A stretch of DNA of 61,875 nt, filler included, from Jimgerdemannia flammicorona (lineage: Eukaryota): assembly GCA_003990765.1 (NCBI GenBank). It is 3 parts of 3 records of this genome, joined end to end, with 100 filler letters (N's around TTAATTAATTAA, not from the genome) between each part and the next. Parts side by side here need not be neighbours in the genome. Positions count along the whole stretch, not along the records: positions 1 to 20,564 come from RBNJ01001651.1; 2 more parts are not named here. One strand, given 5' to 3'. Of this stretch, positions 1 through 29,478 are shown in pieces. Each line of letters begins with the position of its first letter. Position 1 is the stretch's first letter. The notes beneath the pieces are model-generated. The model had not been told where the DNA came from. It saw only the letters and a program-made list of their open reading frames with translations, and did not search any database. The translations under genes were made by a program, and so were the position numbers.

Positions 1-1230
1 AAAAAAAAAAAAAAAAAAACAGAGAGCGGATTTACTTTAAGAGTGGTTTGTGGGTTATTAAATAGGTTTATTCGCTATTCATAATATTGCTATACTAGGA
101 GTATTTGTGTGAAGGGGTATTGTGGGAAAGTACTCAGGAGTTGTGTTCGGATTGTTCAAGTCTTTCAAGTCTTTCAAGTCTGTTTGAGTCTGAGATTCTG
201 AGGTCTGGGGGAGGGGGTATTTATACTAGTGAGGGGCTATCTGGACTATGCTGAATATGGATGTAGTACTAAGTGCCTTGCTGAGTCGGAATGTAGTCAT
301 GTAGTACAAGTGTAATCTGACATGTCAAGAGATCGTCTGACTGCTGAGTCAGTTCACAGTCATGTCGTATAAGGCTAATCTAACTATACTATGACTGCTA
401 GGCTATTTATAGATTTAGGCACTGTCTGGTTAGTCCTTGATGACATCACTATTGATGACATCATCACTGGCAAAGTCTGAGCAGTTTTTTCTAACATTAT
501 CAGTTTTCAAGATGTCGTCACATCTATCTCTTGTAAGATTAAGGCTGTCCTTGGTAGCGGTAGTTGTACAAGGATAACAGGTCTTGGTTCTCTTTTTTTT
601 TGGTCTGCTGGTGCATTTGCAAGGACTGGCCATTCTCGTCTAGGGCGAGGGCTCCCAATGTCGTGGCTGGGGGTTCGAACCTCTCGGAAATGATATTTTC
701 TGTAATCCGAGGCAATTTCTAGTAGTAATATCTATCACATGGATGGCTTGAGATTGGTTTTGACGTTGTTGGCTTTCTTGAGTTTAGATGAAGTGTCCGT
801 CACTCTCCAACGGAGGTGACACAGATAAAGTGAACAGAGTTGTTCAAATGCGTTTTGCTTCTACTAAGTAATGAGGTCTTGTATAGTCATGGTATATCTT
901 GGTCTTGAGTTGATAAGTGCAGTTTGTGAACCTTTTGATGGGTGAGATAGGGTTCTTCTTGTCTTGATTTGAGTTTGGTACTTTCAGTTTCTTTTGTGAT
1001 AGTACAGTACACCAAACTAGCTATAGCAGTTCAGAGTCAGTCTTATAGTTGTAGTACTTCTTCTAGTATTCTTGTATCTTGGCAGTGGGTTCTCGTGCTT
1101 GCTGGGTATTTGTGTAACCAGATGATCTTCTTGTTTTGTAGTCTCGCATGTGGTTTCCGAATTAGTTCTGAGGATACCATGCGATTTTGGTGGCTTGGAG
1201 GTTGTGCGCCTACAAGAATACTGGTATAAT
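1..1230 (-). mobile_element. 3' remnant of a Ty3/Gypsy element (degenerate integrase C-terminus, downstream region, LTR-like segment)
   Basis: The minus strand around 900-1060 reads as a decayed integrase tail (QEY*KKYYN...LVW...KLKSRQEEPYL...FTNCTYQLKT, GPY/F-like, across frameshifts). A GTATAAATA TATA-like motif lies at ~217-227, as in the other LTRs. CpG-poor. Confidence 0.5.
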
Positions 1231-2354
1231 TCAGTATCACATCAGAATACTGGTACTGGAACAATTTTGTATCACCTCAGAATGCCAGTGCTGGCATTAT
1301 TCAGTGTAATAAAGAACTTAGAGCAGAAAGTTCAGGATCATGGGGGCTTCATCCTCATCATCACTAAAGGAGATAATATCTATGAATTTGTTATGTTTGC
1401 ATGCTTCAATATCATGTGAAATGATGTCATCACTGATGACATCATCACATTCAGTGGTGAGAAGAAGGTCTGGGGCTCTCCAGTCTATGAGATTCTCTTC
1501 TACAAAATAGGGGACAAATGTGGGGTCTTGGGGAGATCTAACCTGAATGCTTGGGCCTTGGAATACTGAGATCAATCCTTGTAGAAATTGGTCTGGGTTG
1601 TCTTGGAGAATGGGGTACCAGAAGTCTTCTACTTCATCACTATTGAGAGTGATAGTGGACTAGACTTCTATAGCCATCCTGGCTTCTAGTACATTGATAT
1701 GGTGGGATGACAGGTCTCTGAAATCTGAGACTCTAACATACTCCAAGTTGGAGATTGACCATGGTGCATGCCTGAAGATCTGATGGATCTTCTTAGCTGT
1801 CCTTGTTTCATGTATATCCATGAGAGTGACATCTTGTAGCACTTGAGTGCTAGCCTGTGGGAACTCCCAGCAGAGAAGGTTTCCTATTTCATACTCCTGC
1901 TATATTTGGAGGTATTTGGTAGCAATGGTGATCCTTGTTTCCATTTTACAGTGGTAGAGAATAAAGTGATAGAGATCTGCAGTACCCAGATTGACACTAG
2001 GAGTCCTTCTTGAGTGGGTCCTCATGGCTCTTCTGATGTCTTGAAACATCCTTTCCTCAACTGAGATGCCTTGGTGATTCCTTGACCTTGAGGTTTGGCA
2101 GGCAGCAGGCATTTTGTTTATAGTAAGTCTTTGAGTTATTTTGGGATTAGTGGTTCTTATTGATTACTGCTATTGCAGTTCCTTGATTCTTCTTTTATAT
2201 TCTTCAGGATGCTTATACTGTAGTCATAATGACTCACAGTTGGTCATCATTGCTTATCTCATATGTCATATAATCTTCTTGTGCTCTGATCTGGTGGCTT
2301 ATAAGGAAAGACTATCTCCTATACTGATGTCATCATTCTGGGATCACTGTTATA
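1230..2354 (-). repeat. Truncated inverted copy of the long LTR of the 2365-11171 element
   Basis: The reverse complement from 2354 (tataacagtgatcccagaatgatgacatcagt...gtctttccttataagccaccagatcagagcac) aligns with the LTR starts at 2365 and 9599. Similarity is lost below ~1230. Confidence 0.85.
1318..2112 (-). pseudogene. LTR-embedded accessory ORF, unknown function (265 codons, in-frame stops)
   Basis: ORF-track pieces 1900-2112, 1660-1842 and 1318-1575 are in one frame, separated only by TAG stops: MPAACQTSRSRN...QEYEIGNLL...TAKKIHQIFRHAPWSISNL...DDEDEAPMILNFLL*. Confidence 0.75.
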
Positions 2355-2364
2355 ATATTTATAA

Positions 2365-3917
2365 TATAATGGTGACCTCAGAATAATGATATCAGCACAG
2401 AAGACAGTCTTTCCTTACAAGTCACCAGATCAGAGCACAGGAAGATTATATGACATAACTCATCTGGGCTATAAAATAAGTAATAATGATCAACTATGAG
2501 TCATTGTGACCATAAGACAGACATCTCAAGGAATATAAAAGAAGGATCAAGGAACTGCAGTAGCAGCAATCTAAACAAAGCTTACAGAAATAGTTCTAAA
2601 GACTTATTATATATAAAATGCCTACTGCTTGCCAAACCTCAAGGTCCAGGAATCACCAAGGCCTCTCAGTCCAGGATAGGATATTCTAAGACATCCAAAG
2701 AGCTATGAGGACCCATATAAGAAAGACTCCTAGTGTCAACCTGAGTACTAGTGACCCCTATCATTACATCCTCTACTACCATGAAATGGAAACAAGAATC
2801 ACCATCACTACTGAATGCCTCTAGATATAGCAGAAGTATGAAATAGAAAACCTCCTTTACTGGAAATTCCCTCAGGCCAGTCACCAAGAAATACAAGATA
2901 CTACCCTTATGAATGTATGTAAAATAAGAATAGCTAAGAAGATTCATTACGTCTTCAGGTATGTATTATGATCAATCTCCAACTTAAAGTACACTAGGAT
3001 CTCAGACTTCAAGGAACTGTCAGCTCACCACACCAATGCACTGGAGACCATGGTAGTTACAGAAGCCCAGTCTACTATCATCCTCAACAGTGGTGAGATA
3101 GGAGAGTTCTGGAATCCCATCTTCGAGGACAATCCTGATCAATTCCTATAATAATTGATCTCAGTATTCCAAGGCCCCAGTATCTGGATTTGATCTCTCC
3201 AGGACCCCACATTTGTTTCTTATTTTGTAGAAGAGAATGTCATAGATTGGAGAGCCCCAGACCTCCTTGTTCTCCTCACTACTGAATGTGATAATGTCAT
3301 TGGTAATGATGTCATCCCACACAATATACACAAAGTATATGAAATACATAACATATATAATGAGATAGATGAAATATTCACAGATCTCATCTCCTTCAGC
3401 AGTGATGAGGATGAAGTCTCCATAGTCTTGAACATTCTGCTTTAAGTTCTTGGTAATACCAGATTTAATCAGCATCCTTTTCCTGTATAACTATTATTCT
3501 TCTGGTATTCTTTTTCTATACTACTGAAATTCTACTAATATCCTGAACTTGGTATAACTATTTATATAGATACTTGAACCTATACTTACAACCATAGTTT
3601 TCTGTGTTTCAGTATTTTATTTAGTTATTAGAATTTATATTTAGCTTTATAACTTAGCAACTATTGAATTATATTTTGTATAAATATCCCTCTTATTTTC
3701 TTTGAAATAAAGTCAGTTTCAGTTCACTTATACTCAATTCTATACAAGCAATCTAAGAGATAACAAGACAGTTTAAAGATAAGAAGTTTGAGGACTATAA
3801 GACCTTGGGAAGGTACTCTAATAAGAACTTGCTTATAACAAACTTATAGTTAGTCTGAGAGATATACCTTAGAGAGAATCTGATATATTTAAAAGACTCA
3901 GTGACTACTATATAATA
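2365..3917 (+). repeat. 5' LTR (~1553 bp)
   Basis: Aligns end to end with 9599-11171. The termini are decayed to TA...TA. TATA-like GTATAAATA at ~3678. Confidence 0.88.
2618..3445 (+). pseudogene. LTR-embedded accessory ORF, 5' LTR copy (276 codons)
   Basis: ATG at 2618 (MPTACQTSRSRNHQG) to TAA at 3445 (LNILL*). Same 828-nt length as the 3' LTR copy; interrupted by nonsense transitions. Confidence 0.7.
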
Positions 3918-3973
3918 ACTTAGTGCCCATTGACTAGTGATTTAAGATGAATCTCTTACTTTCAAGCTAAAAA

Positions 3974-6900
3974 ATGAATAACTACCACAATAACTACTCT
4001 GACTACAAGAGTCACTCTTATAAGAATTCAAGATAAGATAGAAATATACCCCCCCACATTCTATAGATATACTACTGAAGAGTTAATCCTGACCTTTATA
4101 GAAGACTTTGAACAATTCACTACTATATAAGCCCTTGATGTAGATGTACAATTGGCCCTTCTACCTGTCAGCCTCAGAGAACCTACCAGAGATAAGTTCA
4201 ATATAGCTATCATTGCTGATGCTAGTGCAGCCAAACTAGCCAATATGAAGAACTTTCTCAGAACTATATACTATACTGAAGAGATCAAGCAAGCTCTCAA
4301 GAATTAACTCAATACTATCTGTCAGAAACTTAGTGAAGATCCTAACTCATTTTATACCTAAATCTGCTATCAGATTGTCTTGACTGACTATGATGATACC
4401 CTTAAGGAATAAATAGCAGATTCAACCTTTCTCAAAGGAGTTCATCCTAAAATTGCCCTAGCAATCTGGTCTACCTCAGCTGCTCTGACCCTTGACCAGA
4501 AAGTGGTCTTTGCACACTACTAGATACTCTGCTGAATACTTAATAGAGAAAATAACTAGTATTAAGATAGTACTATCAAAGCCAATCAGTATTATACTCA
4601 CTATAGTTGTAAATAGACAACTATTCTCACCTACTCCCAAGACAGCCAAAGCTGACCCAGTGGAGAAACTCACCAAGCAGTTTGCTAAGATGACTACACA
4701 CCTTGGTAATATTGTTAGAGAAGTCTGAAGCACCAATAGGAGACCAGTATAGAGATTTACAGTTACTACAGAAGAATACAATATCATATGCTTCAGATAT
4801 AAAGAAAAAGGCCACTATATAAAGAGTTATATGATGGAAATAAAACACAAGACCCAATCTAGTAATGCTATAAGAACTAGAGAATAAACCAATATAGTAG
4901 TTATTGAGAAGATTGGTGATACTGATGATGAAGAATACTATAAAGAGTCTGAATTCTATCCTGTTACTGAAGATACCAGAACCCAGTCTAAGCCCTATGA
5001 CAAGAAGAACAACAATAAGCCAGTTGGAAGTCCAAAGAAGACTCCAGCTATTACTATTCAAAGCAAGATCCAATCTGAGGAGATTGATCAAGATATAGAG
5101 TTAGATAAAGCTGCTTACTAAATTATTGAAAGCACTACTCTAGTCTCAGGAGAAAGTGAAAGCAAGAAAGAATAGAAGCTGCACAAGACTAAGATCCACT
5201 AGTATTATATCTACAAGAACCTTAAGGAACAGAAGGTCAATACTACTTTTGAACAACTAGCCAAAGTCTCTGCCTTTAGATAGCAGTTGAGAGTAGGACT
5301 TACAACTACTATCAAGAATCAAGAGTATAAGATTGTAGAAGCTCATAATACACAAGAAGAATCTGAAAACTCAGGTGAAGAATCTGAAGACTAGCACAAG
5401 ATATCAGCCTATATTCTATATTAGATTGAAGATTGTATCTTTGATACTATCATTGATACTAATACTAGAGGATGACTCATGAGCAAGAAGGCAATTGACT
5501 ACCTAGGCTGAGATATTGAAGAGTCTATCAAAATAGTCTATGTTACAGTAGATAGCATACAAGCTACCTCTCTAAGCAAGATCTGAGAAGTCCCCATCAA
5601 GATTAGAGGAGCTACCATCTCAGTAAACATAATTGTTATAAGTGCTACTAACTATAATATTCTCATTAGCAATCAATGGCTTCACAAGGCCAAGGCTATT
5701 ATTAATCTCAATGCCCAGAAGATGCAGATCAACTATAGAGAAAGAAAGGTACAAGTCTCTATCAATATTTATAAAGAAGTACTATCAGACATAGAGAAAG
5801 GAGATGAAGAAGATATAGAAGTCTTCATACACTTGATATACAAGAACAAGAGCAAGACACCCAAGCTCACAGATGAGTAGTAGTATAATAAGATCATTAA
5901 TGGCTATATTCTTCAAGAAAGATGTCTCCATGGTACCAGGATGTACTGCTCTAAACATCTGAATGACTGCTGGTCCTATATCAGTAAAGTCAGAAAAATC
6001 TACCAATAAAAGTATAAGCAAGAAGCTGCTGAAGTAAAAAGGGAAGCCAAAGAAGATGACCAGCCCCCAGAGCTTCAAGCTGATAGTGATGATGAGGAGG
6101 AACAAGAACCAGACATCACTCTCAAGATCAAGAAGTTTTACCCCAAAGCTAAGATCCCAGAATATAAGACTGAAGGAGCTATAGAAATGGACCTTGCTAG
6201 TATTCAAGATGCTACCCTTGAGCCACAGACAACCACTCTACTTAATATTGGAATCAGAGTCAAGTTACCAGAAAACTATGCTGGAATCATCAAGATCAGG
6301 AGCAGTCTGGCCAAAAGTGAAATCTCAGTTGAAGAAGGAGTAATTGACCCTGATTATATCAGTGAGATCTTCCTCATAGTTAGGAATTACAACCCCACCA
6401 CTCTATTCAAAGTCAAGAAGCATGACAGGATTGGTTAGATACTAATCTATAAAGTCAAAAAGCCTAAGATCACTGAAGCCATTGAACTCATTAAGACTAA
6501 GAGAGAAGAACAAGATTTTGGATCTACTGGAAGAGGAGCTTATACTGCCACCAAGATTACCAAACTCAAGTACAAGAAAGATAAGAACCAGAATAAGCAC
6601 ACATATATCATTAGAGAAAACTTTCCTCTAAAAGAACAACTTCTCAAGATCCTGCACCAGAATGAAGAAGTACTTACCATAGACTTCAGAGACATCTATA
6701 ATTAAGAACTCAAGTACTATCATAAAGTTGATACCAGCAATACCAAGCCCATCTACCAGAAAGCCAGACCTATACCACCTATCTACAGAGAATGACTGTA
6801 AGCAGAACTCAAGGAAATGGAAGAAGCTAGAAATATCAAGTAAGCTATTAGTCCCTGGGCTTCACTTATTGTCCTTATCCCAAAGAAAGGAAGCAAGCCT

Positions 6901-9263
6901 GAAGAGTTTGCTTCAAAACTCTACATTGATTACAAGAAGCTCAATGCAATTACTAAGAAGGATAGGTAGCTCTTATCAAATATTCAAGAAATCATTACCA
7001 CTCTCAGAAGTAAAGTCAAATACTATACTACCTTAGATCTGTTCTCAGACTTTCATCAGATTGGTCTCACTCAAGATACTAGTGGAAAATCAGCCTTCAT
7101 CATACCTGATGTCACCTATGTCTACCTGTGAATACTATTTGGAATATACAATGTCCCAGCAAGTTTGCAGCAAATGATAAATAGAGTCTTCAGCAATGAG
7201 ATTAGAAAATGACTCTTTATCTATATTGATGATGTGATCATCTTCAGCAATACTATAGGAATATGTCAACTATATATAACTAGCTCTCAAGAAGCTCAAG
7301 GAGTATGGCCTCTACATCAAGTCTAAGAAGTGTAAGTTTATAGCTCAGAAAATTGCCTATCTAGGACACCTCATCAACCAGCCTGGAATTTATATAGACC
7401 CTATGAAGGTTGAGGCTATTGTAGCCTACCCAAGACCCAGAACAACTACAGAAGTCCATACCTTTCTTGAACTGGCCTCTTACTATAGAAGATTTATCAA
7501 AGGATACTTCAATATTGCAGTATCTATCTATAAGCTACTGAAGAAAGAGATCAAATTTGAATAGACCAAGAAATATCAAGAAACCTTCAATAAACTCAAG
7601 ACCAGATTGACTCAAGCACCCATCCTTAGAAGACCAGATTAAAACCTAGAGTTTATCTTGCAGACAGATGCAAGTACTATAGGACTTAGAGTAGTTCTAA
7701 CTTAGAAGAAAGATAGATATAAATATGTCATCTCCTATAAGCCAAGATACCTATAGAGTAGAACAGAACTATAAGTCATATAAGCTTGAATGCTTAGCAG
7801 TAGTTTGAGTAGTAGACAAGTTCTACTACTACCTAGCTGGGAAATACTTTACTTTTCAAACAGACCATTCTGCTCTCACCTAACAATTCTACACTCTGAA
7901 CCCCAAAGAAATATATGCCAGATGGATCTACAGACTGCAAGAATATAACTATACTATCAAGTACTGCTCAGAAAGAACTAATACCAATGCTGATGTACTC
8001 TCAAGGATACTCTGAAACACTCTCATCAAGACTGTTCAATATGAATAAGGAACTATACTATAGATTAATCAGCTATCTTGGGCAGCAGAAGATGCCAAAC
8101 TATCTCAAACCCTGAACTATCACCATTATCAACTAGACTTGGAAATAATTTGAACTAGACAATATTATACTCAGAAAAGGAGAAAAGTTTGTAGTACCTG
8201 AACATAGAAAGTATCAAGTAATGAAGGAAGTATATGAACAAGGACACCTAGGAGGAACCAATATATATGATAAAGTGAGAAGAACTATGTAGTAGTCCAA
8301 GATAAAAGAAGACCTGTACCAATTTGTTAAAGGGTGTAATAAGTGCCAAAAACAGAAACAAGTAGGTATCCAGGTTATCAAGAATTGAGCCTATTCTCTT
8401 CCACTACATCACAATGGATATTATTAGACTACTATCAGTAATACTATCAGAAAACCACTATATTATAGTTATCATAGACCTCTTTACCAAATGAATAGAA
8501 GCAGGAGCATTACAAGAAGCCAATGCTCTCTCTATAGCTGACTTCCTGTACTGAAAAATCATCTGCTGCTATAAGACACCAAGGCAAATCACCACAGACC
8601 ATGGTACAGCATTTGTCAATAGATTCTATAAGATAATGTATTAGAAATACAAGATCCAGCATATCAAGACTACTGCATATCATCCTCAAGGAAATGGACA
8701 GACAGAGAGAACCAATAAGACTCTTAAGAACATTCTGATAAAGATCTCAGACATATATGACAATTGGGATAACTATCTCCCAACTGCCCTCTCTATCCTA
8801 TGAGACATATAGTCACAGAGTATATACTTTACTCCAAGAGAACTGCTCTTCAGAGAAGAAGATTCTAATGGAACCTCAGCTATAAATCTAGACCTAACAT
8901 GGAGATAAGTTGACTCAGAAATCTAGAGACTATATCAAATCAGGAAGAAGGCTGAAGATTATATCATCAAGTCACAAGTACTGATAAGAAAGAATGCAGA
9001 AAAGAATTACAAGACCCTAGAACCCATCCAAATCAGAAAAAAAGTTCTACTATATTGAAATATAGTAGAAGTCTCATAATTGCAAAAACTGGAGCCCAAA
9101 TGAGAAGGACCCTTCTACATACAAGATATTAAGAGAACTACCTTCTGGCTTAGAAAACTCTCAGAAACTATATGTAGTACCTACTATAGTATATAGGAAT
9201 AGACTCAAGAAGTACCATAAATCTATATATATAAGAGAAGCAAAATATAATGACTATCTGTAA
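3974..9263 (+). pseudogene. gag-pol polyprotein pseudogene (Gag-PR-dUTPase-RT-RNaseH-IN)
   Basis: Recognisable motifs: SPWASLIVL, LYIDYKKLN, LDLFSDFHQI, YIDDVIIFS, FLELASYYRRFI, LQTDAS, ADVLSR, AYHPQGNGQTERTN, KLEPK*EGPF. Many stops and several frameshifts. Confidence 0.9.
6120..6535 (+). pseudogene. dut: Trimeric dUTPase domain within pol
   Basis: MDLAS...RSSLAK...GVIDPDY.SEI...DRIG*ILI...R.EQDFGSTG match the five dUTPase motifs. Confidence 0.9.
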
Positions 9264-9564
9264 GGTTCTAGTCTGTGAATTATAACAGCATATCCCATAA
9301 CCAGCAGGCAATCCATCTGGACTATTCTCTAAGAGATATGGCACCAGCAACTACTCATCCATAAGACTTTTGAAGTCAGAAGAGTTTGAACCATCAACTG
9401 ATTGATCAAGATTAGAATCAGACTCTTGCTCTATATGAAGGGAGCAACTCTTCACCATTATGCCAAAATATATAGAGAAGATACTAGCCCATAAATATCA
9501 CTTTTCAACCCTCTGCCAGAGGTTATGGGATCAGCAAATTTTTCAAGACTAGACTAATGAATAA
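9250..9564 (+). pseudogene. Putative small accessory ORF overlapping the pol stop (105 codons)
   Basis: ATG at 9250 to TAA at 9564 in one frame (MTICKVLVCEL*QHIP*PAGNPSGLFSKRYG...LCQRLWDQQIFQD*TNE*). The five internal stops could each be single transitions from CAA, TGG, CGA or CAG. Confidence 0.4.
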
Positions 9565-9598
9565 GAATATTCAATAAGATCCTTATTCAGGAGGAAGA

Positions 9599-11171
9599 TA
9601 TAATAGTGATCTCAGAATAATGACATTAGTACAGGAGATAGTCTTTCCTTATAAGCCATCAGATCAGAGCACAGGAAGATCATATGGCATAACTCATCTG
9701 GGCTATAAGATGAGCAATGATGACCAACTATAAGTCATTATGACTACAAGAAGAAATATAAAAGAAGAATCAAGGAACTATAGTAGCAGCAATCCAAACA
9801 AAGCTTACAGAAATAGTTCTAAAGATTTACTATAAACAAAATGTCTGCCACTCACCAAACCTCAAGGTCCAGGAACTACCAAGACCCCTCAGTCTAGAAT
9901 AGAATATTCTAAGACATCAGAAGAGCTATGAGGTCCTATATAAGAAGGACTTCTAACATCAACCTAGATACTAGTGACTTCTATCATTATATTCTCTACT
10001 GTTGTGAAATAGAAACAAGGATTACCATTACTACTAAATGTCTCTGGATATAGCAGGAGTATGAAATAGGAAACCTCCTCTACTGGGAATTCCCTCAGGC
10101 TAGTCACTAAGAAATACAAGATACTACTCTTATAGATGTACATGAAATAAGAATAGCCAGGAAGATTTATCAAGTCTTCAGGCATACACTATGATTGATC
10201 TCCAACTTAGAGTATACTAGGATCTCAGACTTCAAGGAACTGTCAGCTTACTGCACCAATGTACTGAAGGCCATGGTGACTACAGAAGTCCAGTCTACTA
10301 TCACTCTCAATAGTGATGAAATAGGAGAGTTCTGGAATCCCATCTTCAAGAACAATCCTGATCAATTTCTGTAACAATTGATCTCAGTATTCCAAGACCC
10401 CAGTATCTAGGTTAGATCTCCCCAGGACCCTACATTTGTTTCTTATTTTGTAGAAGAGAATGTTATAGATTGGAGAGCCCCAGATCTTCTTGTTCTCCCT
10501 ACTGCCAAACATGATGACATTATTGATGATAATGTCATCTTATGCAATATATATAAAGCATATGAAACATATGATATATACAATGAGACAGATGAAATAT
10601 TTACAGATCTCATCTCCTTCAGCAATGATAAGGATGAAGCTCCTATAGTTCTGAACATTCTGCTTTAAGTTCTTGGTAACACCAGATTCTACTAGTATCC
10701 TTTTCCTGTATAACTGTTATTCTTCTGGTATTCTGATCTTGTGTAACTCAGAAATTTTCTGGTATTCTTTTTCTGTACCACCAAAATTCTACTGATATCT
10801 TGAACTTATGCAATTATTTGTACAGATACTTGAACTTGTACTTACAACTGTAGTTTTCTATATTCCAGTATTTTATTTGATTATTGAAATTTATATTTAG
10901 CTTTATAACTTAGCAATTATTGAATTATATTTTGTATAAATATCTCTCTTATTTTCTTTGAAATAAAGTCAGTTCTAGTTCACTTACACTCAATTCTACA
11001 TAAGCAATCTAAGAGATAATAAGACAGTTTAAAGATAAGAAGTTTGAGGACTATAAGACCTTGAGAAGACACTCCAATAAGAACTTGCTTAATAAATTTA
11101 TGCTTAGTCTAAAAGATACATCTTGGAGAGAATTTGATATATTTGAAAGACTCAGCAACTATTACATAACA
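9599..11171 (+). repeat. 3' LTR (~1573 bp)
   Basis: Follows the polypurine tract, aligns with 2365-3917, and ends ...cataACA. Confidence 0.88.
9841..10668 (+). pseudogene. LTR-embedded accessory ORF, 3' LTR copy (276 codons)
   Basis: ATG at 9841 (MSATHQTSRSRNYQD) to TAA at 10668; colinear with 2618-3445. Confidence 0.7.
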
Positions 11172-13600
11172 ATAAGTATATTTTCAAGTTTGTGAATTTA
11201 TATTTACTAGTATATACTTATTTAGCATATACTTATTCTTTTATATAATTATAGCTAGGTTATATTATCTGGTCTGATATTTTACTAAGAACTTTCAACA
11301 AAAGAGAGTATAAGAAAATATATATAAAATAGCTCAGGATGATTAATAAGGTTTATAACCATATTGATCTACTTGAGATTGAAAAAAACAGTTTATAATC
11401 TATGTAAAGATATTGACTCAGATGAAGATAACAAGATAATCAACATCTCCAATATTCTTCTTTCATTAAATAAGAATGATCTAATCTAAAAGAGAGATGA
11501 GCAGAATATAGAAAAGAATATATAGTAAGAGAAACTATTTATAGAAGAAGAAAGTATTTATAAAAGAGAAGTATCTATAGAGAGAAATGTTCATGAGAGT
11601 GTTTGTAAACAAAAAAAGAAATAAAATAATCTTTTTTGAAAAATTTACCTTATGTTTATCTATTATTTACAAGCTATTCATATCTATAGAATATAAGTTT
11701 ATGCTTATATTAAAGAGTTCATATCTGTTGAATATTAGTTCATACTTATATTAAAGAGTTCATATCTATCATTAATGAAAAATATTTATATCTATAGCAA
11801 ATATTGGAATATATATATATATATTCCTATCTGTAAAATATATTTGAGTTTATAATATACTATTATGAATATATACTAAAATTTATAGATCTTTGACAAA
11901 TATACTTAGAACTGAATTATTTTTTCATGATAATGAAATAAGTTTATATCTATAGCAAATATTTGATATATATATATATATTTATCTATAAAATATACTT
12001 AAGTTTATAATATACTATTATAAACATATATTAGAATTCATAGATCTCTGATGAACATACTTAGAACTAAATCATTTTTTTGTAATATAGTTTGAGTAAT
12101 AAGTTGATAGTGGTCTTTTTTCAGATACTATTATCTCAAGAATAATATAATATATATATATATATAGTTGTTCTTTTTATAATATTACTAAGATAAATAA
12201 ATTTGATAACTAATCTGTTAATTAATAATCTTAATAGAGTTATTACTAGATCTTTTATAATAATTTTCAGTAGACTCAATGATCTTAATAGTGGGTTTAT
12301 AATAGTACTAGGGGCTACCAATATCAGACTCAGATATTTCTTTAATTACTTTTCTGGATTAGAATAATATATTAGGAACTTTACTAAGTTCAATAGTCTA
12401 TAGTTCAATATTAAATTATTTTTACTTATATATAGAGGACTTAATAGTAAAGATGGAATTTTCACTAATTGGTATAATATTTCTTATAATTTAGGAAAGT
12501 CTTAGCTTTGTAGTAGAGAGAAAGTTTAAGAAATATTCATTTATAGCTTTGATGGATTCTTATATGTATTTCTTATAAAAATAACTATTAACTAGCTTTT
12601 TGAACTCTTTTTTAATATCTTTAATATAGATAACTTCTTTGTTAGATATTATAAATATATTGAATACTTTTTATATAGTCTCATTGTTGAGCTTATTGAA
12701 TTTCTCTTAGCTGATATGGGTCTCAGTTTATTTAGTAATAATTCTATTGACTTCTTTAGTTTAGTTCTAGAGAGTAGTCAGGTTGAAGATATTTCTTAAT
12801 TATCACTATTAGTATTAATAATACTGAGTAGATTCTTGTGAGATTTTTTGTATTTATAGTAGATTTTTAAAAGAGCTTACTTATATAGATAGAGAAAACT
12901 TCTACTGCTATCAAATTATAATACATAAAACTATATACTAATAGAATTAATATATTACAGATAATTTAAGATAACTATCAGCCCTAAGTTCTGAGTTCTA
13001 TAAAAAAAGTACTAAGTTTTAAATACCTATTACTAAGATATAGTTCAAGTATCACTTTTAGGTTCTTGTATTAGGTAGAGATATATACTATACTTATACA
13101 TATCATATATTAGTTGATCAGTCTTAAAATTATTAATAAGTTGGATCTAAAAGTTCTTAATAAGAATACTTCTTTATTCTTAAGAAGAGAAAGTAGAGCT
13201 AAGGTTACAATATACTCAGTACAGAGAATATTTATATAGATTTAGAATATAGTATATTAGATATATCTACATATCTACAGTTATACTATATATAGTATCT
13301 ATGACTATTATGTTGAAATTTCTATTATAAATTTTATTGTAATTTTTATTAATATTTCTATTATAAATTCTGTTGGAAATTTCATTATAATTTTTAGTAA
13401 CTTATTATTATATAATGAATTATTATAAGAGCTTACTAATAAAAAACTATTAATTAAAACTATTAATATAAAATTATACATATGAAAAACTATTAATAAA
13501 ACTTACTAATATAAATATATTGATAATAAAGACTTATTAATAGATATAAACTATAATGACTTAATTAATTTTTATTTTATTAATAAATATTTACATATTA
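11172..13600. repeat. Extremely AT-rich, CpG-free decayed repeat region with local duplications
   Basis: No CpG seen. Internal tandem duplications at ~11695-11770 and ~11775-11930 vs ~11930-12080; TTATTAATA-like units at 13400-13560. No family assignable by eye. Confidence 0.5.
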
Positions 13601-14432
13601 TTATTGATAGAGGCTCAATGATATAGGATAGAGAACTGTTGATGATCAATGGACATGGTCAGTTAAAAAAGCAAAAAACGACTTTTTTTTATCATTAATG
13701 TGTGACTGCATTCGTGCTAGAGGCACTGAAGAAGTCACGGGAACAAGAATCGAGTCTTCTGGGTCCGAAGCACGGACATAACCTGTTGAAATATACTTAT
13801 CCTAGCAAAAACATAACCTGTATGAAATATCACGCAGAATTTTCCGAAACTCTGCAAATTTATCAATACTGCTCAAGGATTTCTGAATGGTTAATAATCC
13901 CCATGATCAATAGCGGTGAGCATGAGCGATGAGCGACGGTTGAAGCTGATTTAGATAGCAAACAATACGCACGGAGGATCTTCCTCTGGGCTTTGCTGGA
14001 TGTAGCTGCCTTTAGGGGCCTTGGTGGCTTAAAGGTTTAGGGTCTTCGGGTCTTAGGGACACCAGTTGGACATATGATTTAAAGCATTGGTCCCGAAAGT
14101 CACTTAGGCAGATGTCAATAGAATGAAATCGGAGTTTCCAAACTATCATATTAACATAAGACACCCCCGAGAGTTGGGGGAGCGTCCATTGTACATATTT
14201 CTCGATTATGCGAGTTTAGCAAAACAAACAATAACATATGCTCAGGGTTATTGTTAAACCGCCCGCGTGCGAAAGCTCATTTCGTGTTTAGGAAATAACA
14301 TCGGCAAAGCACTTATTATATTGACCATTACAATAGTCATCGCTGGGAATATTTATGCAATTCTTGAGAGGTTTGGATGCGGCACTTGAATTATTACCTG
14401 AATATTGTGACCCGACTTACTTTTAACATGAA

Positions 14433-14579
14433 GGAAGGTTGCCGACAATAATCGAATTATTCCACCAGGGAGGAAGGTTGCCGACAACAATCGAATTATT
14501 CCACCAGGGAGGAAGGTTGCCGACAACAATCGAATTATTCCACCAGGGAGGAAGGTTACCGACAACAATCGAATTATTC
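14433..14579. repeat. 39-bp minisatellite, 3.8 copies
   Basis: ggaaggttgccgacaacaatcgaattattccaccaggga starts at 14433, 14472, 14511 and 14550 (partial); only two substitutions among copies. Confidence 0.95.
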
Positions 14580-15365
14580 ACAAGTACCATAAACAAACAT
14601 TTGGTAATTCTAAATTGAATTCCCCAACATCGATCTCGGCATTGACGATGCGTGGTTACACATATAAGTACAACCGCTCTTTTGCTTTTTATCCAACTAA
14701 CCATGGATACACAAACGTATAAACATGTCAAGTTCACAATTTTTAGTGGTTGAGAAATTTCATGCATGCGATAAATAGAGGGTATAGAAAGTGTTTCCAA
14801 CAATGTTATAATAATTCCATCTCTCCAGAGTAACAGTTAATTGATAACGGATTGTGATTACCGAGTCATTGGTTGAACCGTGTGGCGTAAGTTCAATAAA
14901 GCGTGAGCGTACATTTAAATGCTATGACAGAAAGCCTGTCACACTGCGGATACCTAATTGTGGGATTTTTTTATTTTTTTTTTATTTTTTATTTTTACGT
15001 AAAGCAATACAAATACTACGAAATTCGGCTATTAGCACGCGATTCGGATATGCGGATGATCTAATTGCTAAAGGGCCCATTAATTCAATGAATTTAAGCC
15101 TCATTGGGAAGATTTCTGTTGAACAATGCTTGTGTGGACTGAGTTATGGTTGTTATTTTTGTCAAGCCAACTATAAATGACCACAGTTGATTCCTTTTGT
15201 AACAATAAGGACTTGTAGACTCCACCGCAATAACGCCACCATCCAACTCATAAATAAATATAGCTAAAACGCTTCGTTAGGCCATGCTTGTTTTGAGCTG
15301 AATCATATGCGGGCTGTTCCGTTATCTAAGGGGAACATTTGGTCATGCGTGAAATTCATTAAAAA

Positions 15366-15366
<1 letters not shown>

Positions 15367-15400
<34 letters not shown>
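15367..15400. repeat. (AAC)n microsatellite
   Basis: About 11 AAC units. Confidence 0.95.
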
Positions 15401-15763
15401 TAGTTGGGCTATGCTCGCTTAGCGCCGGATTGTTTGGTTTGCTTTGTTTATTCCAATCCAAAAAAAAAAATAAAAACCAATTGTGCGATCGCGCTCGATT
15501 GTATGCATGCAGGGAGATTTTGTCGATTGCTTCAAACCACGCTGTTGAAGATAAAACAAGGTACACGCAATAAAAAAAAAAGGGTCACATTGGGCGTTAT
15601 TCTTGGAAGAGTGTATCAATCAATGCTCGAAATACTTCAGTTTGGTTAAAAAGTCCCAATTTGGAAGTCGGCCGGAATCTTGCCGGTGTGCGGTGTGTGA
15701 CATCATCCCAGTGAAATTACCGATGCCGAAGGTTACTTTTTGTACAAAAAAAAAAAAGAAAAA

Positions 15764-18464: not shown

Positions 18465-18511
18465 GGGCACCACTGGGAATTGAACACGGGACCTTTCGCA
18501 CCGAAAGCGAG
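18465..18511 (-). pseudogene. Truncated 3'-half copy of the adjacent tRNA-Pro gene
   Basis: The reverse complement ctcgctttcggtgcgaaaggtcccgtgttcaattcccagtggtgccc covers the anticodon arm to the 3' acceptor strand, with the anticodon changed TGG>TCG; no D arm or 5' acceptor strand. Confidence 0.85.
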
Positions 18512-20664: not shown

Positions 20665-21065
20665 ACTGTTTCCCAATGATGTCTTCTCACTTTCTCGAAG
20701 TCGGTAGGGGTTACTCCTCTCAGGTGGTCTATCGCTGCTTCATCTTCTCGGAATAACTTGTGGATCCTTTTGGCAATAGTGATCTGTGAGTGGGAGAGTT
20801 GACACTCGGCAATCCAGTCCTCCTTGGTCTTTGCTGGATCCTGATTGAGCACCTGTCCAAGCTTGAAGTACTCTTGGAACTCTGTGCGATATTGATAGGC
20901 TCTAAAGTGTGAGATCTGAGAGAGATGAGTCTGCACAATACTCTGAATATCCTCATAGTATAGCTCTATGGTCAGAGGCTCGGTGGTATGCCATTGTCTT
21001 TCGATGGCTCTTTGGGCAGCACTAGTGATCTTGAGTGTCATCACGGTACTTTTGTTACTGGCCAT
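20665..21065 (-). CDS. Accessory ORF downstream of pol, unknown function (open until the gap)
   Basis: The ATG overlaps the end of pol. About 134 uninterrupted codons; QEYFKLG...IAKRIHKLFR...IDHLRGVTPTDF resembles the LTR-embedded ORF. Confidence 0.75.
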
Positions 21066-24000
21066 GATATTTCTTAAGTCAGTTTCGGTGAATGGTGGTG
21101 GGGATTATTGTGCCTGAGGGTTTTCGTAGCCAAAAGGTGGTCCCTTTTATATCTTGCACAAGGTAAGGTCCTTCCCACTTGAGCTCCAGTTTTTGTGACC
21201 ATGAAGCTTCTACCATGTTCTGATATACCAGGACTTTGTCTCCTAGTGTTATAAGAATGTCGCTGATGAGCGGCAGTAGTTGGTGATCCTTCTTGGTGAC
21301 TGCATTGAGCTTTCTGTAGTTGACACAGAGCCTTGGGGCAAATTCTCCAGGTTTGCTTCCTTTTTTCGGGGCTAGTATAACTGGTGAAGACCAGGGGCTG
21401 CTGGCTTCTTTGATGATACTGGCTTCTTCCATCTGCTTGATTTCTTCTCTGAGCCATTCTCGGTAGGCTGGTGGAACAGGTCTTGCCTTCTGATAAATTG
21501 GTTCGGTATCTCCAGTATCTATCTCATAATAGTAGTGTGGGGTCTTTCCCTTGATATTCTTGAAATCTGTGGCAAGGACATCCTTGAATTTGTGGAGTAT
21601 TTTCTTGAGTTTCTCCTTGAGTGGGAATTCGTCTCCAATGGTGTAACTGTGCTTGCTCATGTTTTCCTCCTTCTTATGCTCAAGTTTGGTGATCTTGGTG
21701 CTGGCGAATACTCCTCTTCCTGTAGATCCAAATCCTTTCTTTCCTCTTTTCGTTTCCTCCAGATTCTTGACTTCTATGATCCTTGGTTGTGTGATTGGGA
21801 AGATCAACATCTGTGCCAATCAGTTCTTCTTCTTGACTGGGAATGGAATTGTAGGATTGTGGTTCCTAGCAATGAGTAGAATTTCTCCCATATAGTCTGA
21901 ATCAATGACTCCTCCTTCGATTGTGATTTCGCTTCTAGCCAGGCTGCTTCTTGTCTTGAGAATCCCGACATGATCCTTTGGGATGGTCATCTCCAGTCCA
22001 GTTGCGAGTAGGGTGGTTGTCTGGGGTTCGAGTACAGTTTCTTCTACTGTAGCGATGTCCATTCTGGCTGTGTTTTCTGACTTGTATTCTGGCAAGACTG
22101 CATCAGAGTGGATCTTTCGAATCTTGACCTTGATTTCTTCTTCATCATCACTGTCCTCCAGGAGGGCTGGTGGTTCATCATCTTCCTCCTTCTCTTCTTC
22201 CCTGATCTATTTTTCGAGAGCTTTCTGGCTTCTTTCCTGGTAGATCTTCCTGGTTCCGATGGTGCACTGGTAGCAATCATTGACATGCTCCATACAGTAC
22301 ATCTTGATTCCATGAGGGCAGACTCCTTGTGGGGCATAGCCTTCTGCGATCTTCTTGCACCATTCTTCTTCACTCATCCATCCAACTTTCTTCTTCTTTG
22401 GGGTAGTCACCATATAAGCTTCCTCTTGCTTGCTCTCTTCTTCCTCCATATCGGGCAGGACTCCTTTGTTGATGTTGATGGGAATTCGTATCTTCTGTCC
22501 CCAGTAGGTGATTTGCATCTTCTGGGCATTGAGATCGATTACTGCCTTGGCTTTATGAAGCTATTGATTGCTGATGAGGATGTCATAGTTGGTGGCATTG
22601 GTTACGATTATATCTACTGGGATTGTTGCTCCTTCGATCTTGATGGGAACATCTCGGATCTTTCCCAGAGGTGTGGCTCTTGTGCCATCAGCTGTGACGA
22701 ATACTAGCTTAGTTGCTTCTTCTACATCCCAACCTAGGCAGTCTGCTGCTTTCTTACTGAGGAGACATCCTCCTGCTCCTGTGTCAATGATGGCTTCAAA
22801 GACTCGATCCTCAATTTGGTATGTTGCATAAGCAGAGGTTTTGCGATTGTCCTCACTTTCTTCTCCTGAGTCCTCTTGAACATTATTGGCCTTGGTTATC
22901 TTCCATTCTTATTCCTTGGTTGTTTCGGCAAGTCCAAACCTCATTTGCTGTCTGAATATTGGGATTTCTGCAAGCTGACCAAAGGTTGCATTGACCTTTT
23001 GTTGACTAAGATCCTTGAAGATATCATACTTGAAGGTCTTGGTCTTGCAAAGCTTCTTTTCTTTTTCTCCTTCACTGGCTGGAGTGGTTCCTTGGATGAT
23101 ATCTTGAACTGCTTGCTCCAACTCGATACCCTGGTCCATCTCTTCAGCTTGGCTTTCTGTGTCAGTTTCCATCCACTTTTCCACTGAGTTCTTCTTGGGT
23201 CTTCCTGGCAGTCTCTTGTAGGGTTCTTTGCGAACATCCTTCTTGGTGGTCTGAGCAGAATAGGCCTCCCATTCCTCTTCATCAGATTCTCTGATTTCTT
23301 CAAAGGTGATTGTATTGGCCTGCTCCTTATTTTGTGTGGCATTGCTTGGTTGAGCCTTGTGTTTGGTTTCACTCATACATTCGTAGGAGTAGTGGCCTTC
23401 TTCTCCGCAAGTATAGCAGGTGCCTTTCTTCTTGTCTGAGGTGGCGGTGAACTTCTGGACAGAGTGGCGGTCTCTTTCTCGAATCTCCTTTACCACATCT
23501 CCCAGGTGGGTGGTCATTTCAGCAAACCTTTTGGCAAGTTCCTCCATAGGGTCGCTGTTCTTTTGCTGCTCAGTAGCTTTTGGCTAAGGTGTGTTTTGAT
23601 TGATCATTGTGGTGGGGATCACACTGGTTGCCTTGAGTGCCTCGATTCTGACTCCTATAACTCTCTCCATTATATGGTCTTGTGGGTGTCTGGCTATCCA
23701 GTATCGCTGAGCATAGGTGACCCTCTGTGGCAGATCCAGAATCACTAGTGATGAGCGGATGGCCATGGCTATTTCTAGATGGACTCCTTTTATAAAGGTT
23801 GCTTCAGCTACTTGATCTCGGGTAGCAGCAGCATAATCTGCGAGAATTATCTAATATCGAATTCTGGTATAGAATGTGTTTGGATCCTCACTCATTCCTT
23901 GGCATGTTGTGTTGAGCTGATCCTTCAGGGCTTGCTTGATCTCATCTATGTAATATGTGTTTCGGAGCCAGGTCTTCTGTGCTGTCAGTACAGCATCAGC

Positions 24001-24251
24001 ATCATTTCCTGCATGGGTTGTGGCTGTGAATGCTGCTCTGGCAGGACCTCATAGGCTGAAGGGCATGAGGGCTACTTGCTGTGCTGCTGTCAGAGTCCTT
24101 ACAGTGGCATACTGCTCGAAGTCATCAATGAAGGTGATGATTGATTCATCTGAGGTACATATATCTATGGAATACTGGTGGTCTCATATCCATCTTGTCT
24201 GGGTATTGGAGCTCAGTTTGTATGGTTGTTTGGGTGGTGGTGGTTGTTCAT
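21055..24251 (-). pseudogene. gag-PR-dUTPase-(RT/IN fusion) pseudogene
   Basis: ORF-track fragments 22909-23547, 22207-22518, 21820-22095 and 21079-21819 are colinear. dUTPase motifs RSSLAR, GGVIDSDYMGEI, AQML and RGKKGFGSTG lie at ~21716-22125. Confidence 0.9.
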
Positions 24252-24307
24252 TGTTCAGCTTGAAAGTGAGGAATTCGTCTTGAATCACCAGCCAATGGGT
24301 ACTAAGT

Positions 24308-24766
24308 TGTAACATAGTGGACGCTTACTCTTGAAAGTATGTCGGATTTCTGTATCTTGAAAACTTGACTGTTCTGACTCTCACAGAGTCTCTTGAAGTG
24401 GCAGGGGAGGGTGGGTGAGTTCGAAGTATATCTGCCCACAGGTTTACTAGTTTCTTTGCTATCTCTTTACTTTTGAACTATTTCGATCTGAGGTTTATTC
24501 ACTCGAAGATACTGGGTTATTTATACAAGTTTGCTAGCTATGAGAGAGTGGCTAAGTGATAAATGAGTCATTTGGACTTTGTTGAAATATTTGGACAATG
24601 TCTAAATGCTATACTAAATCGGGGTATTTGATTTGGATAATGTCTAAGAATTTAGACAATGTTAAAATCGAGGACTGCTAACTATAATGCTATACTACTT
24701 TGGGAATGGGTGCAATCAAGTGTCTATTCCCTATTTCCTTCTTCCAAATCTGGCTGTACCATCACA
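24308..24766 (-). repeat. 5' LTR (459 bp, TG...CA) of the deleted Gypsy element
   Basis: The minus strand begins TGTGATGG and ends TTACA, contains GTATAAATA, and is followed by the same acttagt.cccatt leader as at 3918. Confidence 0.75.
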
Positions 24767-26460
24767 ATATATAGCAAAGAAGTTTATCTTATAGATTCTA
24801 ATATAATACAGTATATAATAGCTCACTATATATAGTTCTCTATATGAGAAGTTTGAGTATCTCATACCTATCAAACTAGGTGACAATAATGTTATTTATA
24901 CTCAAAGTAAGGGAAATATTGGTATATATCTATATAGAAAAGTTGATGAACTCTTAGGTATCTTTGTACATATACTATATATTTCAGATATCAGTAAGAA
25001 TCTCTTCTCAATCAGTCAGATAATGGCTTGAGGAGATAAAGAAGTAAATATATAATCAAATAGTATAATGGTAATCAATCTAAGAAATAATAAGGAGTTA
25101 ATATATATATTGAAAAAGAGAAACCTATATATAATTAATGATATATCAAGTAGCATATTATCTACATATTCTACTATAACCAAAGAGAATCTCTAATATA
25201 TATGGTATGAATACTTAGAATATATTGGCAAGATGAGCTTAGAATAAATAATAAGGAGTAAATCTATATAAAGATTACTGAACTATATAACACTAGACTT
25301 TAGATTTTATGATAGATATATAGCAATAAGACTTTATGGCAACTTTCAGGAATATATAAAGCAAGTGATCAGTATTTTCAATATAATATATACAGACATC
25401 TGTAGCCCTATACAAATAGCAAAATACTCCAGAAAGAAGTATTTTATTACTTTTATTGATAATTATACTTGCAAAGCCTATATATACTTCCTTATAGTAA
25501 AGAATGAGATATTCAAGAAATTTTAAGAATTCAAGACAACTGTGGAGAATGAAATGAGATATGAGATATATGAACCCTATGCTCAGATAATGGTAAGAAA
25601 TATATCAACAAAACCTTCAAATACTTTTTGAAGAAGTATGATATTTAATACTCTATAACAGCTCTCTATATATTTAAGCAGAATGGTATAGTAGAGCACT
25701 TTAATTAAATAATAGTAGAGATAGCTTGAATGATGATGAATATAGCTAGTTTACTATATACCTTCTAGACTGAAGTAGTAAATATTGTAGTATATATCTA
25801 AAATTATTATATTTCTTGAGCTTTAAGTAAAGACTCTAGTAGATCTGGCAAATCTGATAATAATAATTAATAATTTAAGAGCAATAGTGATCTTACCCCT
25901 AAAGAATCATGAAGTAGATCTAAGCCAGATATTTCACACCTATGGATATTTGAGAGTGAGGCTTATGTCTTAGATAAGAATAACAATAGAGATAAATTTG
26001 AGCCTAAGATAGATAAGCATATATTCCTTAGATACAATAGAGTGGTATATAGATTATAGAACTTATAGAAATATCATATCATCATCTTATGTAATATTTA
26101 ATTTAAGAAAATTAAGTAGAAAATTCATATAGAAGTTCCTATTCTGACCAATCTAACAGTATAGCTAGTAATAACTATGTCAACTTCAAAGATAAGTAGA
26201 ATCATGTCTACATCAGTATCAGTGCAACCTATACCCATACCAATGAGACTATTAGAGGCAAGAATTATGGAAATTACAGATGAGGACAACAATGAGAATA
26301 TCTCTTTAAAAGACAAGAAAAGTGTAAGTCTAGACTATATAACAAGATCAAAGCAGATTTAGGAGGTTATTAGAATAAGTCTAAGGAATCCTATTATAAC
26401 AAATATCACATAAACTATACTTACAAGTGTACTTACATTACAATGACTGGTAAACCAGTA
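24767..26460 (+). mobile_element. Ty1/Copia relic, protease to integrase part
   Basis: Decayed motifs: WYEYLEY (from WHxRLGH, ~25203), TDICSP (HTDxCGP, ~25393), YFITFIDNYT, QNGIVEHFN, F*TEVVNIVVYI. Confidence 0.75.
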
Positions 26461-29400: not shown

Positions 29401-29478
29401 GAGGAGGGGTAATATTCAGGTTACACAATCTTTGGCAACACTTTCAACACAAGTTTCTGGAGAAAAGCTACTAGTATT

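Follow-up and report, generated by a model that had tools for sequence, protein, structure and literature searches.

A Probable Accessory Gene in the U3 Region of a dUTPase-Bearing Ty3/Gypsy Retrotransposon of the Fungus Jimgerdemannia flammicorona

A Decayed Gypsy Element with a Reading Frame in Its Long Terminal Repeats

The DNA analyzed here, referred to below as the window, is a stretch of 61,875 nucleotides (filler included) from the fungus Jimgerdemannia flammicorona (GenBank assembly GCA_003990765.1). It consists of three contigs joined end to end (1-20564, 20665-41220, and 41321-61875), and neighborhood across the joins is artificial. The first contig carries a Ty3/Gypsy retrotransposon, termed element 1, which is flanked by a pair of long terminal repeats (LTRs), and a third, inverted LTR of a sister subfamily stands head-to-head with its 5′ LTR (Table 1). 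Each of the three LTRs contains the same long open reading frame (ORF). We consider this ORF to be probably a genuine accessory gene that lies wholly in the U3 region of its LTR, which measures 1.55 kb in element 1 and no less than 2.35 kb in the sister subfamily, within a dUTPase-bearing Ty3/Gypsy element of a fungus competent for repeat-induced point mutation (RIP).

When the internal region of element 1 was compared with Pfam, stop codons being read as X, the families RVP_2, dUTPase, RVT_1, RT_RNaseH(_2), Integrase_H2C2, and rve were matched in this order. Element 1 is a Ty3/Gypsy element (Metaviridae) with the pol order protease (PR), reverse transcriptase (RT), RNase H, integrase (IN), and with a dUTPase placed between PR and RT. 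The Gypsy assignment had already been made in an earlier reading of the sequence without database searches (the sequence-only reading), and the Pfam domain order together with the LTR pair bears it out. A sequence like a primer binding site (PBS), TTAGTGCCCATTG, follows directly after position 3918 and is apparently derived from TGG... by RIP. If the element is delimited by TG at 2370 and CA at 11171, the 4-nt word ATAA brackets it, a possible target-site duplication that may also have arisen by chance in AT-rich, RIPped DNA. Of the three long-LTR copies that the sequence-only reading had listed, the direct pair stands at about 2364-3918 and 9598-11172; the minus-strand copy proved not to be a plain solo LTR of the same family, its segment at 1304-2354 being 75-76% identical to the pair from the LTR start to about 40 nt beyond the ORF stop.

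Table 1. Features of the element 1 locus, of element 2, and of the contig joins (positions along the window).
Feature	Positions	Strand	Remarks
Inverted, longer LTR of the sister subfamily	1..2354	-	at least 2.35 kb, cut by the start of the window; head-to-head with the 5′ LTR
LTR ORF copy, inverted LTR	1318..2112	-	795 nt, 264 codons, 2 internal stops (residues 71 and 151); best preserved copy
Upstream TATAAAA, inverted LTR	2199-2193	-	
5′ LTR of element 1	2364..3918	+	direct repeat with 9598-11172, 83% identity; ends ± ~6 nt
Upstream TATAAAA, 5′ LTR	2534..2540	+	84 nt ahead of the ORF ATG; within the AATATAAAAG block
LTR ORF copy, 5′ LTR	2618..3445	+	828 nt, 275 codons, 7 internal stops; family profile (A5) E 1.6e-96
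Promoter/terminator module, 5′ LTR	3678..3711	+	GTATAAATA at 3678-3686, AATAAA 19 nt on at 3706-3711; marks the U3/R boundary
Internal region of element 1	3919..9597	+	PBS-like TTAGTGCCCATTG, gag, PR, dUTPase, RT, RNase H, integrase; RIP-degraded, three frames
Polypurine tract AGGAGGAAGA	9589..9598	+	ends at the 3′ LTR; read directly in the sequence
3′ LTR of element 1	9598..11172	+	direct repeat partner of the 5′ LTR
Upstream TATAAAA, 3′ LTR	9757..9763	+	
LTR ORF copy, 3′ LTR	9841..10668	+	828 nt, 275 codons, 7 internal stops
Promoter/terminator module, 3′ LTR	10934..10967	+	GTATAAATA at 10934-10942, AATAAA at 10962-10967
Contig-joining linkers	20565-20664 and 41221-41320		each with two 44-N runs flanking TTAATTAATTAA, a six-frame-stop design
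Element 2, deletion derivative of a dUTPase-Gypsy element	20665..24770	-	truncated at the contig end
Distant homologue of the LTR ORF in element 2	20667..21065	-	ATG at 21065, 11-nt overlap with the pol stop; open for 133 codons to the contig edge

Position and Openness of the LTR ORF

The sequence-only reading had placed in all three LTRs one ATG-to-stop frame of 828, 828, and 795 nt with a TATAAAA about 80-85 nt ahead of its ATG, and had set this TATAAAA apart from a main LTR TATA downstream of the ORF (~3678). All of these were confirmed, the downstream TATA being the word GTATAAATA. The difference between 828 and 795 nt is explained by frame-keeping indels of 6, 12, and 15 nt, which sum to 33. 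The five alternative frames of the ORF stretches contain 9-31 stops. In a control with 2000 mononucleotide shuffles, sequences as open as the ORF frame arose 14 times for the 5′ LTR and once for the 3′ LTR; not one of the 2000 equaled the inverted copy or L001, a metagenome contig with a related frame that is introduced in the next section.

The pair of GTATAAATA and AATAAA, with a spacing of about 19-20 nt, is common to the LTR pair, the inverted LTR, L001, and the short LTR of element 2, and where the LTR end is visible (the LTR pair and element 2) a U5 of about 170-200 nt follows this module. An AATAAA located at or before the first transcribed base of the 5′ LTR is the usual way in which retroelements escape premature polyadenylation, and a TATA some 25-30 nt ahead of the start site would put the AATAAA there. 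With GTATAAATA-AATAAA taken as the genomic promoter and terminator, the ORF upstream of it therefore belongs to U3. In the 5′ LTR, it starts after the LTR start at about 2364 and is complete before GTATAAATA at 3678 and AATAAA at 3706, and the 3′ LTR has the same layout; on these predicted signals the ORF sits wholly in U3, upstream of a conserved TATA/AATAAA module. The polypurine tract lies 243 nt upstream of the ATG at 9841, so that the ORF of element 1 does not have the placement between pol and polypurine tract that is typical of additional ORFs (aORFs). A gene located in U3 would therefore be copied by reverse transcription to both ends of each new insertion.

Relatives of the ORF and Selection on Its Frame

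A word-seeded protein search yielded six intact or partial relatives among 331 candidates, with 54-80% identity. Two of these have the same MPA... start and LNFLL end, one being 271 residues long, and the inverted copy is 80% identical to the intact protein P0001. Scanning metagenome contigs of the Joint Genome Institute (JGI) gave 395 pattern matches, of which one was a relative, namely L001 (1345 nt, with an uninterrupted 323-codon frame), while none of the 65 pattern matches in viral contigs was a relative. The family is tiny: when 1,835,955,588 representatives were searched exhaustively with a HMMER profile, 5 clusters were recovered, the most distant being 39% and 28% identical to the relative P0002. 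Pfam returned no family for the three copies in the window at E up to 1.

As a check on its claim, the sequence-only reading had proposed the ratio of non-synonymous to synonymous substitution rates (dN/dS) between subfamilies, with a value near 1 speaking against a gene. By the Nei-Gojobori method, dN/dS of the inverted copy was 0.20 against L001, 0.29 against the 5′ LTR copy, and 0.26 against the 3′ LTR copy. As a control for RIP bias, the ratio of the corresponding proportions of differences (pN/pS) was recomputed in all three reading registers with 95% bootstrap ranges. For the inverted copy against L001, it was 0.41 (0.34-0.51) in the ORF frame, compared with 1.00 in the +1 and 1.44 in the +2 register; against the 5′ LTR copy the three values were 0.39 (0.28-0.53), 0.79, and 1.01, and against the 3′ LTR copy 0.37 (0.28-0.48), 0.80, and 1.10. 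Between the two LTRs of element 1 no reading frame was favored, the values being 0.51 (0.37-0.73), 0.55, and 0.68. Differences at the first, second, and third codon positions numbered 93, 64, and 130 for the inverted copy versus L001, and 53, 35, and 42 for the 5′ versus the 3′ LTR. A frame-specific deficit is found between subfamilies and none within the LTR pair, and we therefore infer selection while the lineages diverged and neutral decay after insertion. The substitution pattern thus indicates that the LTR ORF is a real protein-coding gene under purifying selection between subfamilies. The selection tests, the relatives, and the lack of any Pfam family likewise favor the accessory gene of the sequence-only reading over a nested transposable element (TE) domain or an accident of base composition.

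RIP Decay of the Three Copies

Between the 5′ and 3′ LTRs there are 211 transitions but 7 transversions. Most of the changes fall in a CpA/TpG context, as 62 of 96 C/T differences stand before A and 38 of 67 G/A differences after T, and this mutation pattern is a RIP signature. The frame had been described as broken mainly by nonsense transitions, and indeed all 16 internal stops (7 + 7 + 2) are RIP-type transitions. Fifteen of them fall where intact homologues carry Gln, Trp, or Arg; the remaining one, a TAA at residue 179 of the 5′ LTR copy, corresponds to CAA in the sister LTR. All three copies carry TGG>TAG at residue 71, and the LTR pair has four stops in common. These common stops reflect either parallel RIP at TpG/CpA hot spots or a parent that was already broken when it transposed. 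The GC content of this AT-rich LTR DNA is 0.34-0.35, and the TpA/ApT ratio is 0.66 in the inverted LTR (light RIP) versus 0.97 in the other LTRs. All three ORF copies are RIP-inactivated relics.

An independent DNA run with matching sequence was compared with the window. It consists of soil metagenome contigs that share 0.06 of the sequence words; 4292 contigs were aligned, and 306 of them were at least 99% alike. Their differences from the window comprise 195 A>G and 234 T>C, versus 139 C>T and 109 G>A. All 14 contigs that cover position 1662, where the TAG at residue 151 of the inverted copy begins, have a Gln codon, a reading taken from the 40 differing places listed among 743.

A Homologue Behind pol in a Second Element

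Element 2, located on another contig of the window, comprises in order a short 5′ LTR, gag, PR, dUTPase, the start of RT fused to the C-terminus of integrase, and an accessory ORF. It is unRIPped (GC 0.46, TpA/ApT 0.58), and an internal deletion has removed the part between early RT and the integrase C-terminus. This non-autonomous derivative still has gag, PR, dUTPase, and the accessory ORF. Its 5′ LTR (about 24770-24330) is bounded by a sharp change to RIPped AT-rich DNA, appears to be about 440 nt long, and has no match to the LTR ORF.

Searched against the six-frame translation of the window in 84 chunks, the profile of the LTR ORF family (A5) matched the three LTR copies and one further place, within the accessory ORF of element 2 (minus strand, 21041-20688; 15.5 bits, E 1.9e-5). 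Compared with the same profile by hhalign, this ORF reached a probability of 79.9% (E 1.4e-5) as a single sequence; the profile of its own family (A7) reached 90.6% (E 1.3e-6), with 108 colinear columns that begin near both N-termini. BLASTP between the element 2 ORF and the most distant member of the A5 family gave E 6e-5 over the motif AxRxHxxFR...AIxHLxGVT. In the reciprocal search of the window with the A7 profile, the next-best matches were the three LTR ORFs, in frame, at E 0.013-0.02.

A search for proteins of near length found 11 relatives of the element 2 ORF among 13 candidates, and none of 57 longer candidates was a relative. Two of the relatives, P0011 and P0018 (153 and 121 residues), share the end ...QYK.IQ.VEAWEFE. 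In the MAFFT alignment, this ending falls on the ...TITLNSDEVEEFW... stretch of the long family, and the short form may be truncated or may go on beyond an intron or a frameshift.

It seems rather likely from these profile matches that the LTR gene family had its start, or also occurs, as a post-pol accessory ORF and that its U3 placement belongs to the lineage of element 1, a change that may have run in either direction. Relocation of an accessory gene from behind pol thus seems a better account of the LTR gene than a fresh capture. In the course of events that we lean toward, with similar likelihood, the gene would have begun behind pol, a position still kept at 21065-20667 in the sister element, and would have become part of U3 once a promoter, the LTR border, and the polypurine tract had come to stand upstream of it.

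Properties of the Encoded Protein

The intact long members of the family are acidic, with a pI of 4.5-4.9. The first 50 residues have a net charge of +4 to +7 in the close members and not in the distant ones, and the last 70 residues have a net charge of -8 to -17 in the A5-family members tabulated. This acidic tail contains the hydrophobic motifs DLISF and LNF(L/R)L, and the most conserved stretch of the protein reads FWNPILQDNPDQF...FQGP...PYFVEEN.IDWR. No hydrophobic membrane segment was recognized in the protein by eye. AlphaFold2 (AF2) gave a predicted local distance difference test (pLDDT) score of 44.7 with 11 sequences and of 57.1 with 20; in the latter model, residues from about 61 to 160 form a helical domain (block means 63-87), followed by a disordered tail. 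The helical N-terminal part and acidic tail that the sequence-only reading had described are thus both recovered.

Its proposal of a fold search brought no function to light, as Foldseek of the AF2 model against the PDB gave no match at E up to 0.001. PDB sequences likewise gave no match at E up to 10. In VIA-align wide, the best Z was 5.9, under the stated noise level for helical models, and in ESM Atlas the best feature score was 0.83, the best structure TM 0.33, and the pLDDT of its own model 0.35. No homology to Sag, Nef, or Tas emerged from Pfam scans of 11 members of the LTR ORF family, whose only matches at E up to 10, ATG5_HBR (three members, best E 0.028) and NpmA (one member, E 0.026), were rejected as noise.

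Expression, Function, and Alternative Readings

Each LTR may be a self-contained transcription unit, a scheme to which we give even chances in each of its parts. The conserved TATAAAA, about 65-85 nt ahead of the ATG, would start the transcript; the LTR AATAAA, 260 nt past the stop codon, would end it, giving a predicted mRNA of about 1.15 kb from the upstream TATA; and the same AATAAA, located about 19 nt after the genomic TATA, would thus coincide with or precede the first base of the genomic RNA, which would not be cut there in the 5′ LTR. A possible though rather unlikely alternative is that the gene is a real U3 gene that has no promoter of its own and is expressed from a spliced or 3′-coterminal subgenomic RNA of the genomic transcript, the upstream TATAAAA being there by chance or for an unrelated reason. 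Retroviral accessory genes are translated from spliced or subgenomic RNAs of this kind. The element 2 homologue overlaps the pol stop and leaves no room for a promoter, so that ancestral expression must have been from genomic RNA, and TATA-like words are frequent in DNA of such GC content as these LTRs. Against this alternative stands AATATAAAAG, which ahead of the ATG forms the longest stretch without any change among the four aligned LTR sequences, the non-RIPped L001 included, and the TATA-to-ATG spacing is kept at 65-85 nt across copies; the upstream TATA is found even on L001, with about 59% identity at the protein level.

As to function, we tentatively suggest on the basis of composition that the protein could be a nuclear regulatory or adaptor protein, whose acidic hydrophobic tail might serve as an activation domain on the LTRs of the family. 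Binding to nucleic acid or to a partner protein would fall to the orphan helical domain, and the tail (DLISF, LNFLL) would raise LTR transcription in trans, each of these steps being as speculative as the whole. About as likely as a nuclear activator, and equally doubtful when taken by itself, is an antagonist of silencing (quelling/RNAi, RIP, or meiotic silencing) or a cofactor that binds Gag or integrase for assembly or targeting. The conserved stretch FWNPILQDNPDQF...FQGP...PYFVEEN.IDWR resembles a binding interface and was not modeled as a fold, and TE families in fungi competent for RIP and RNAi face strong silencing pressure; against this, Pfam, PDB, and fold searches gave no similarity to a known suppressor or to a Gag- or IN-binding protein, and RIP destroyed all three copies in the window.

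Improbable, by contrast, is a reading in which the genomic RNA is driven by the conserved upstream TATA and the ORF would hence lie outside U3, in a long R/U5 leader, as the first cistron before gag. Some plant Gypsy lineages do have upstream ORFs ahead of gag. However, the GTATAAATA-AATAAA module is kept even in the ORF-less LTR of element 2, where it is the sole promoter-like module, and a genomic RNA started at the upstream TATA would encounter AATAAA 1.1 kb on, within its own 5′ LTR. Finally, although no Pfam, PDB, or fold match was found, the ESM Atlas scores are as low as given above, and all three local copies are broken, it is very improbable that the frame is a transduced host-gene fragment or is open by chance or through a constraint on the DNA, given that the non-synonymous deficit is frame-specific and confined to comparisons between subfamilies, that no shuffle equaled the inverted copy or L001, that the relatives with visible context are all TE-linked (LTR signals on L001, pol beside the element 2 homologue), and that 5 clusters in 1.84 billion representatives are unlike a host gene family.

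Several points weigh against an accessory gene in U3 with a promoter of its own and an origin behind pol. In the comparison of the inverted copy with L001, dS is saturated (1.7), and the intact homologues are gene calls on contigs of 0.8-1.6 kb, which are biased to open frames. TATAAAA is a common word in AT-rich RIPped DNA, its conservation being backed by one non-RIPped sequence, L001; this contig stops short of the LTR ends, and LTR residence beyond the window rests on its TATA/AATAAA module. The only run with matching sequence is the DNA soil metagenome, and the transcription signals are known from sequence alone. The homology to the post-pol ORF stands at a probability of 90.6%, and the contig ends before the 3′ LTR of element 2 is reached. 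Regarding function, the N-terminal basic patch is absent from distant members, and no match favors any biochemical function. Lastly, transposition with an already broken ORF would mean that the gene is dispensable in cis.

Put together, an accessory gene in U3 allows a broader picture, which we advance as a tentative and rather doubtful one. The LTR would be a free-standing cassette of promoter, ORF, and poly(A) signal encoding a trans factor that activates LTRs or blunts silencing; as solo LTRs keep the cassette, dead insertions would continue to provide live elements with this factor, which the whole family would share; and the arrangement would have arisen when a post-pol gene entered U3, a step like that of sag, nef, or bel, taken independently in a fungus.

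The Inverted LTR and the Surrounding DNA

Past the point where homology to the LTR pair breaks off, the inverted LTR continues with about 1 kb of unrelated sequence and then regains the promoter block ACTTAG...GTATAAATACCCC. On the minus strand, its tail has GTATAAATA at 226-218 and AATAAA at 72-67. For the tail as a whole (1-1310), tblastx found nothing, relaxed blastn gave only homopolymer-run or short low-scoring matches elsewhere in the window, and there was no Pfam, tRNA, or Rfam match. Within the extra 1 kb, a piece at 430-480 on the minus strand encodes ...SDDVINSDVIKD*, like the motif DDVI(S/G)DDVI of the ORF tail, and may be a duplicated fragment of it. A T-loop-like word, GGTTCGAACCC, stands near 690-680, with no tRNA found there by ARAGORN. 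We also considered the inverted LTR as the 3′ LTR of an element that had been split by element 1; this was rejected, as no Gypsy pol was found on the minus strand of 11173-20564, which leaves two possibilities, namely that the inverted LTR is solo or that it belongs, as 5′ LTR, to an element beyond the start of the window.

The inverted LTR and the 5′ LTR are 8-20 nt apart (2340-2376), separated by the AT-rich spacer TTATAATATTTATAATATAA, and form an imperfect palindrome of about 2.1 kb (1312-3451). The head-to-head arrangement could be due to chance or to insertion targeted to LTR ends. Downstream of element 1, the region at 11173-14000 has a GC content of 0.23 and tandem repeats at 11773-12087 with a 155-nt period, and is probably an older, fully RIPped repeat that received the element insertions. 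Further along the first contig, at 20114-20542 on the minus strand, lies the C-terminus of a CASP (Golgi) protein, a host gene.

On the second contig, a 1.25-kb direct repeat with 70% identity (26470-27690 and 38566-39799) frames a region with a very strong GC skew of 0.39-0.47 (26000-40000). A reverse transcriptase of non-LTR type is found in this region on the plus strand (RVT_1, E 1e-24, about 33140-33850), along with long ORFs at 29413-30999 and 33591-34580, for both of which there was no Pfam match. The third contig contains host genes for a seven-transmembrane (7TM) receptor of the cAMP-receptor/secretin-like kind at 47826-49248 on the plus strand, with an ORF like a G-protein-coupled receptor (GPCR) at 48445-49248, for a Myb-domain protein at 53358-53744 on the minus strand, and, at 56746-58098 on the plus strand, for a zinc-finger protein of the PHD type in which long tracts are acidic or rich in Ala and Ser. 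The three ESM Atlas clusters closest to the GPCR-like ORF (scores 0.95-0.92) belong to Eukaryota, most commonly to Ascomycota, a likeness that by itself pointed to an ascomycete host. Near its end, at 60416-61807, clustered inverted and direct repeats of 300-600 nt with 78-85% identity look like another repeat family or a foldback structure.

Comparison with Known Systems

LTR retrotransposons are usually described as gag-pol machines, with LTRs as regulatory DNA only, and an accessory gene in U3 counts as a hallmark of the complex retroviruses. The present case would be a fungal Gypsy lineage with a selected orphan protein gene in U3, while a sister lineage appears to retain the homologue behind pol, so that both stages of the move can be compared. 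It would bear on the routes by which accessory genes enter LTRs and on whether TEs of RIP- and RNAi-competent fungi encode regulators or counter-defences, and it would suggest for TE annotation that long LTRs and solo LTRs may contain genes. In the open full-text literature (subscription journals, Repbase, and bioRxiv supplements being outside its scope), we found no case of an LTR-resident ORF in retrotransposons beyond that of mouse mammary tumor virus (MMTV); crapaud, TEs of Salpingoeca, and the ‘LTR ORFs’ of Talaromyces were considered as precedents and turned out to be irrelevant.

Among fungal elements, a dUTPase between PR and RT has been described for Tmt1 of Tuber, PosPlaTy3-5 of Postia, and elements of Phanerochaete, and element 1 shares the PR-dUTPase-RT layout of this Tmt1/PosPlaTy3 type, as far as the cited part of the source describes it (PMC2864245). 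For some fungal elements, a figure legend in the same source marks an ‘add. ORF’ of unknown function (PMC2864245). aORFs of LTR retrotransposons are placed between pol and the 3′ LTR or before gag, the former position being that in the plant elements Athila, Bagy2, Grande, RIRE2, and Retand, and in Boty of Botrytis (PMC7264820). Like the LTR ORF, these are orphan ORFs of Gypsy elements conserved across a family, and the element 2 homologue, in sense orientation directly behind pol, is of this kind; however, in the portion of that source cited here the aORFs are internal and none lies within an LTR (PMC7264820), whereas in element 1, in the sister LTR, and probably in L001 the gene is located in U3.

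The LTR ORF shares with foamy-virus tas/bet and with nef the character of an accessory gene that reaches U3, and differs from them in that the whole ORF of element 1 and its putative promoter stand behind the polypurine tract and that no homology was found. In HIV and SIV, the nef gene, and in foamy viruses the bel genes, overlap U3 and are accessory genes 3′ of pol; foamy viruses moreover have an internal second promoter for the accessory genes tas/bet, and their transactivator has an acidic activation region. Sag of MMTV is likewise a frame of about 300 codons that lies wholly in U3 and hence in both LTRs of each provirus. The two have no relation at the level of Pfam, and the gene described here belongs to a fungal host and an intracellular Gypsy retrotransposon and encodes an acidic protein.

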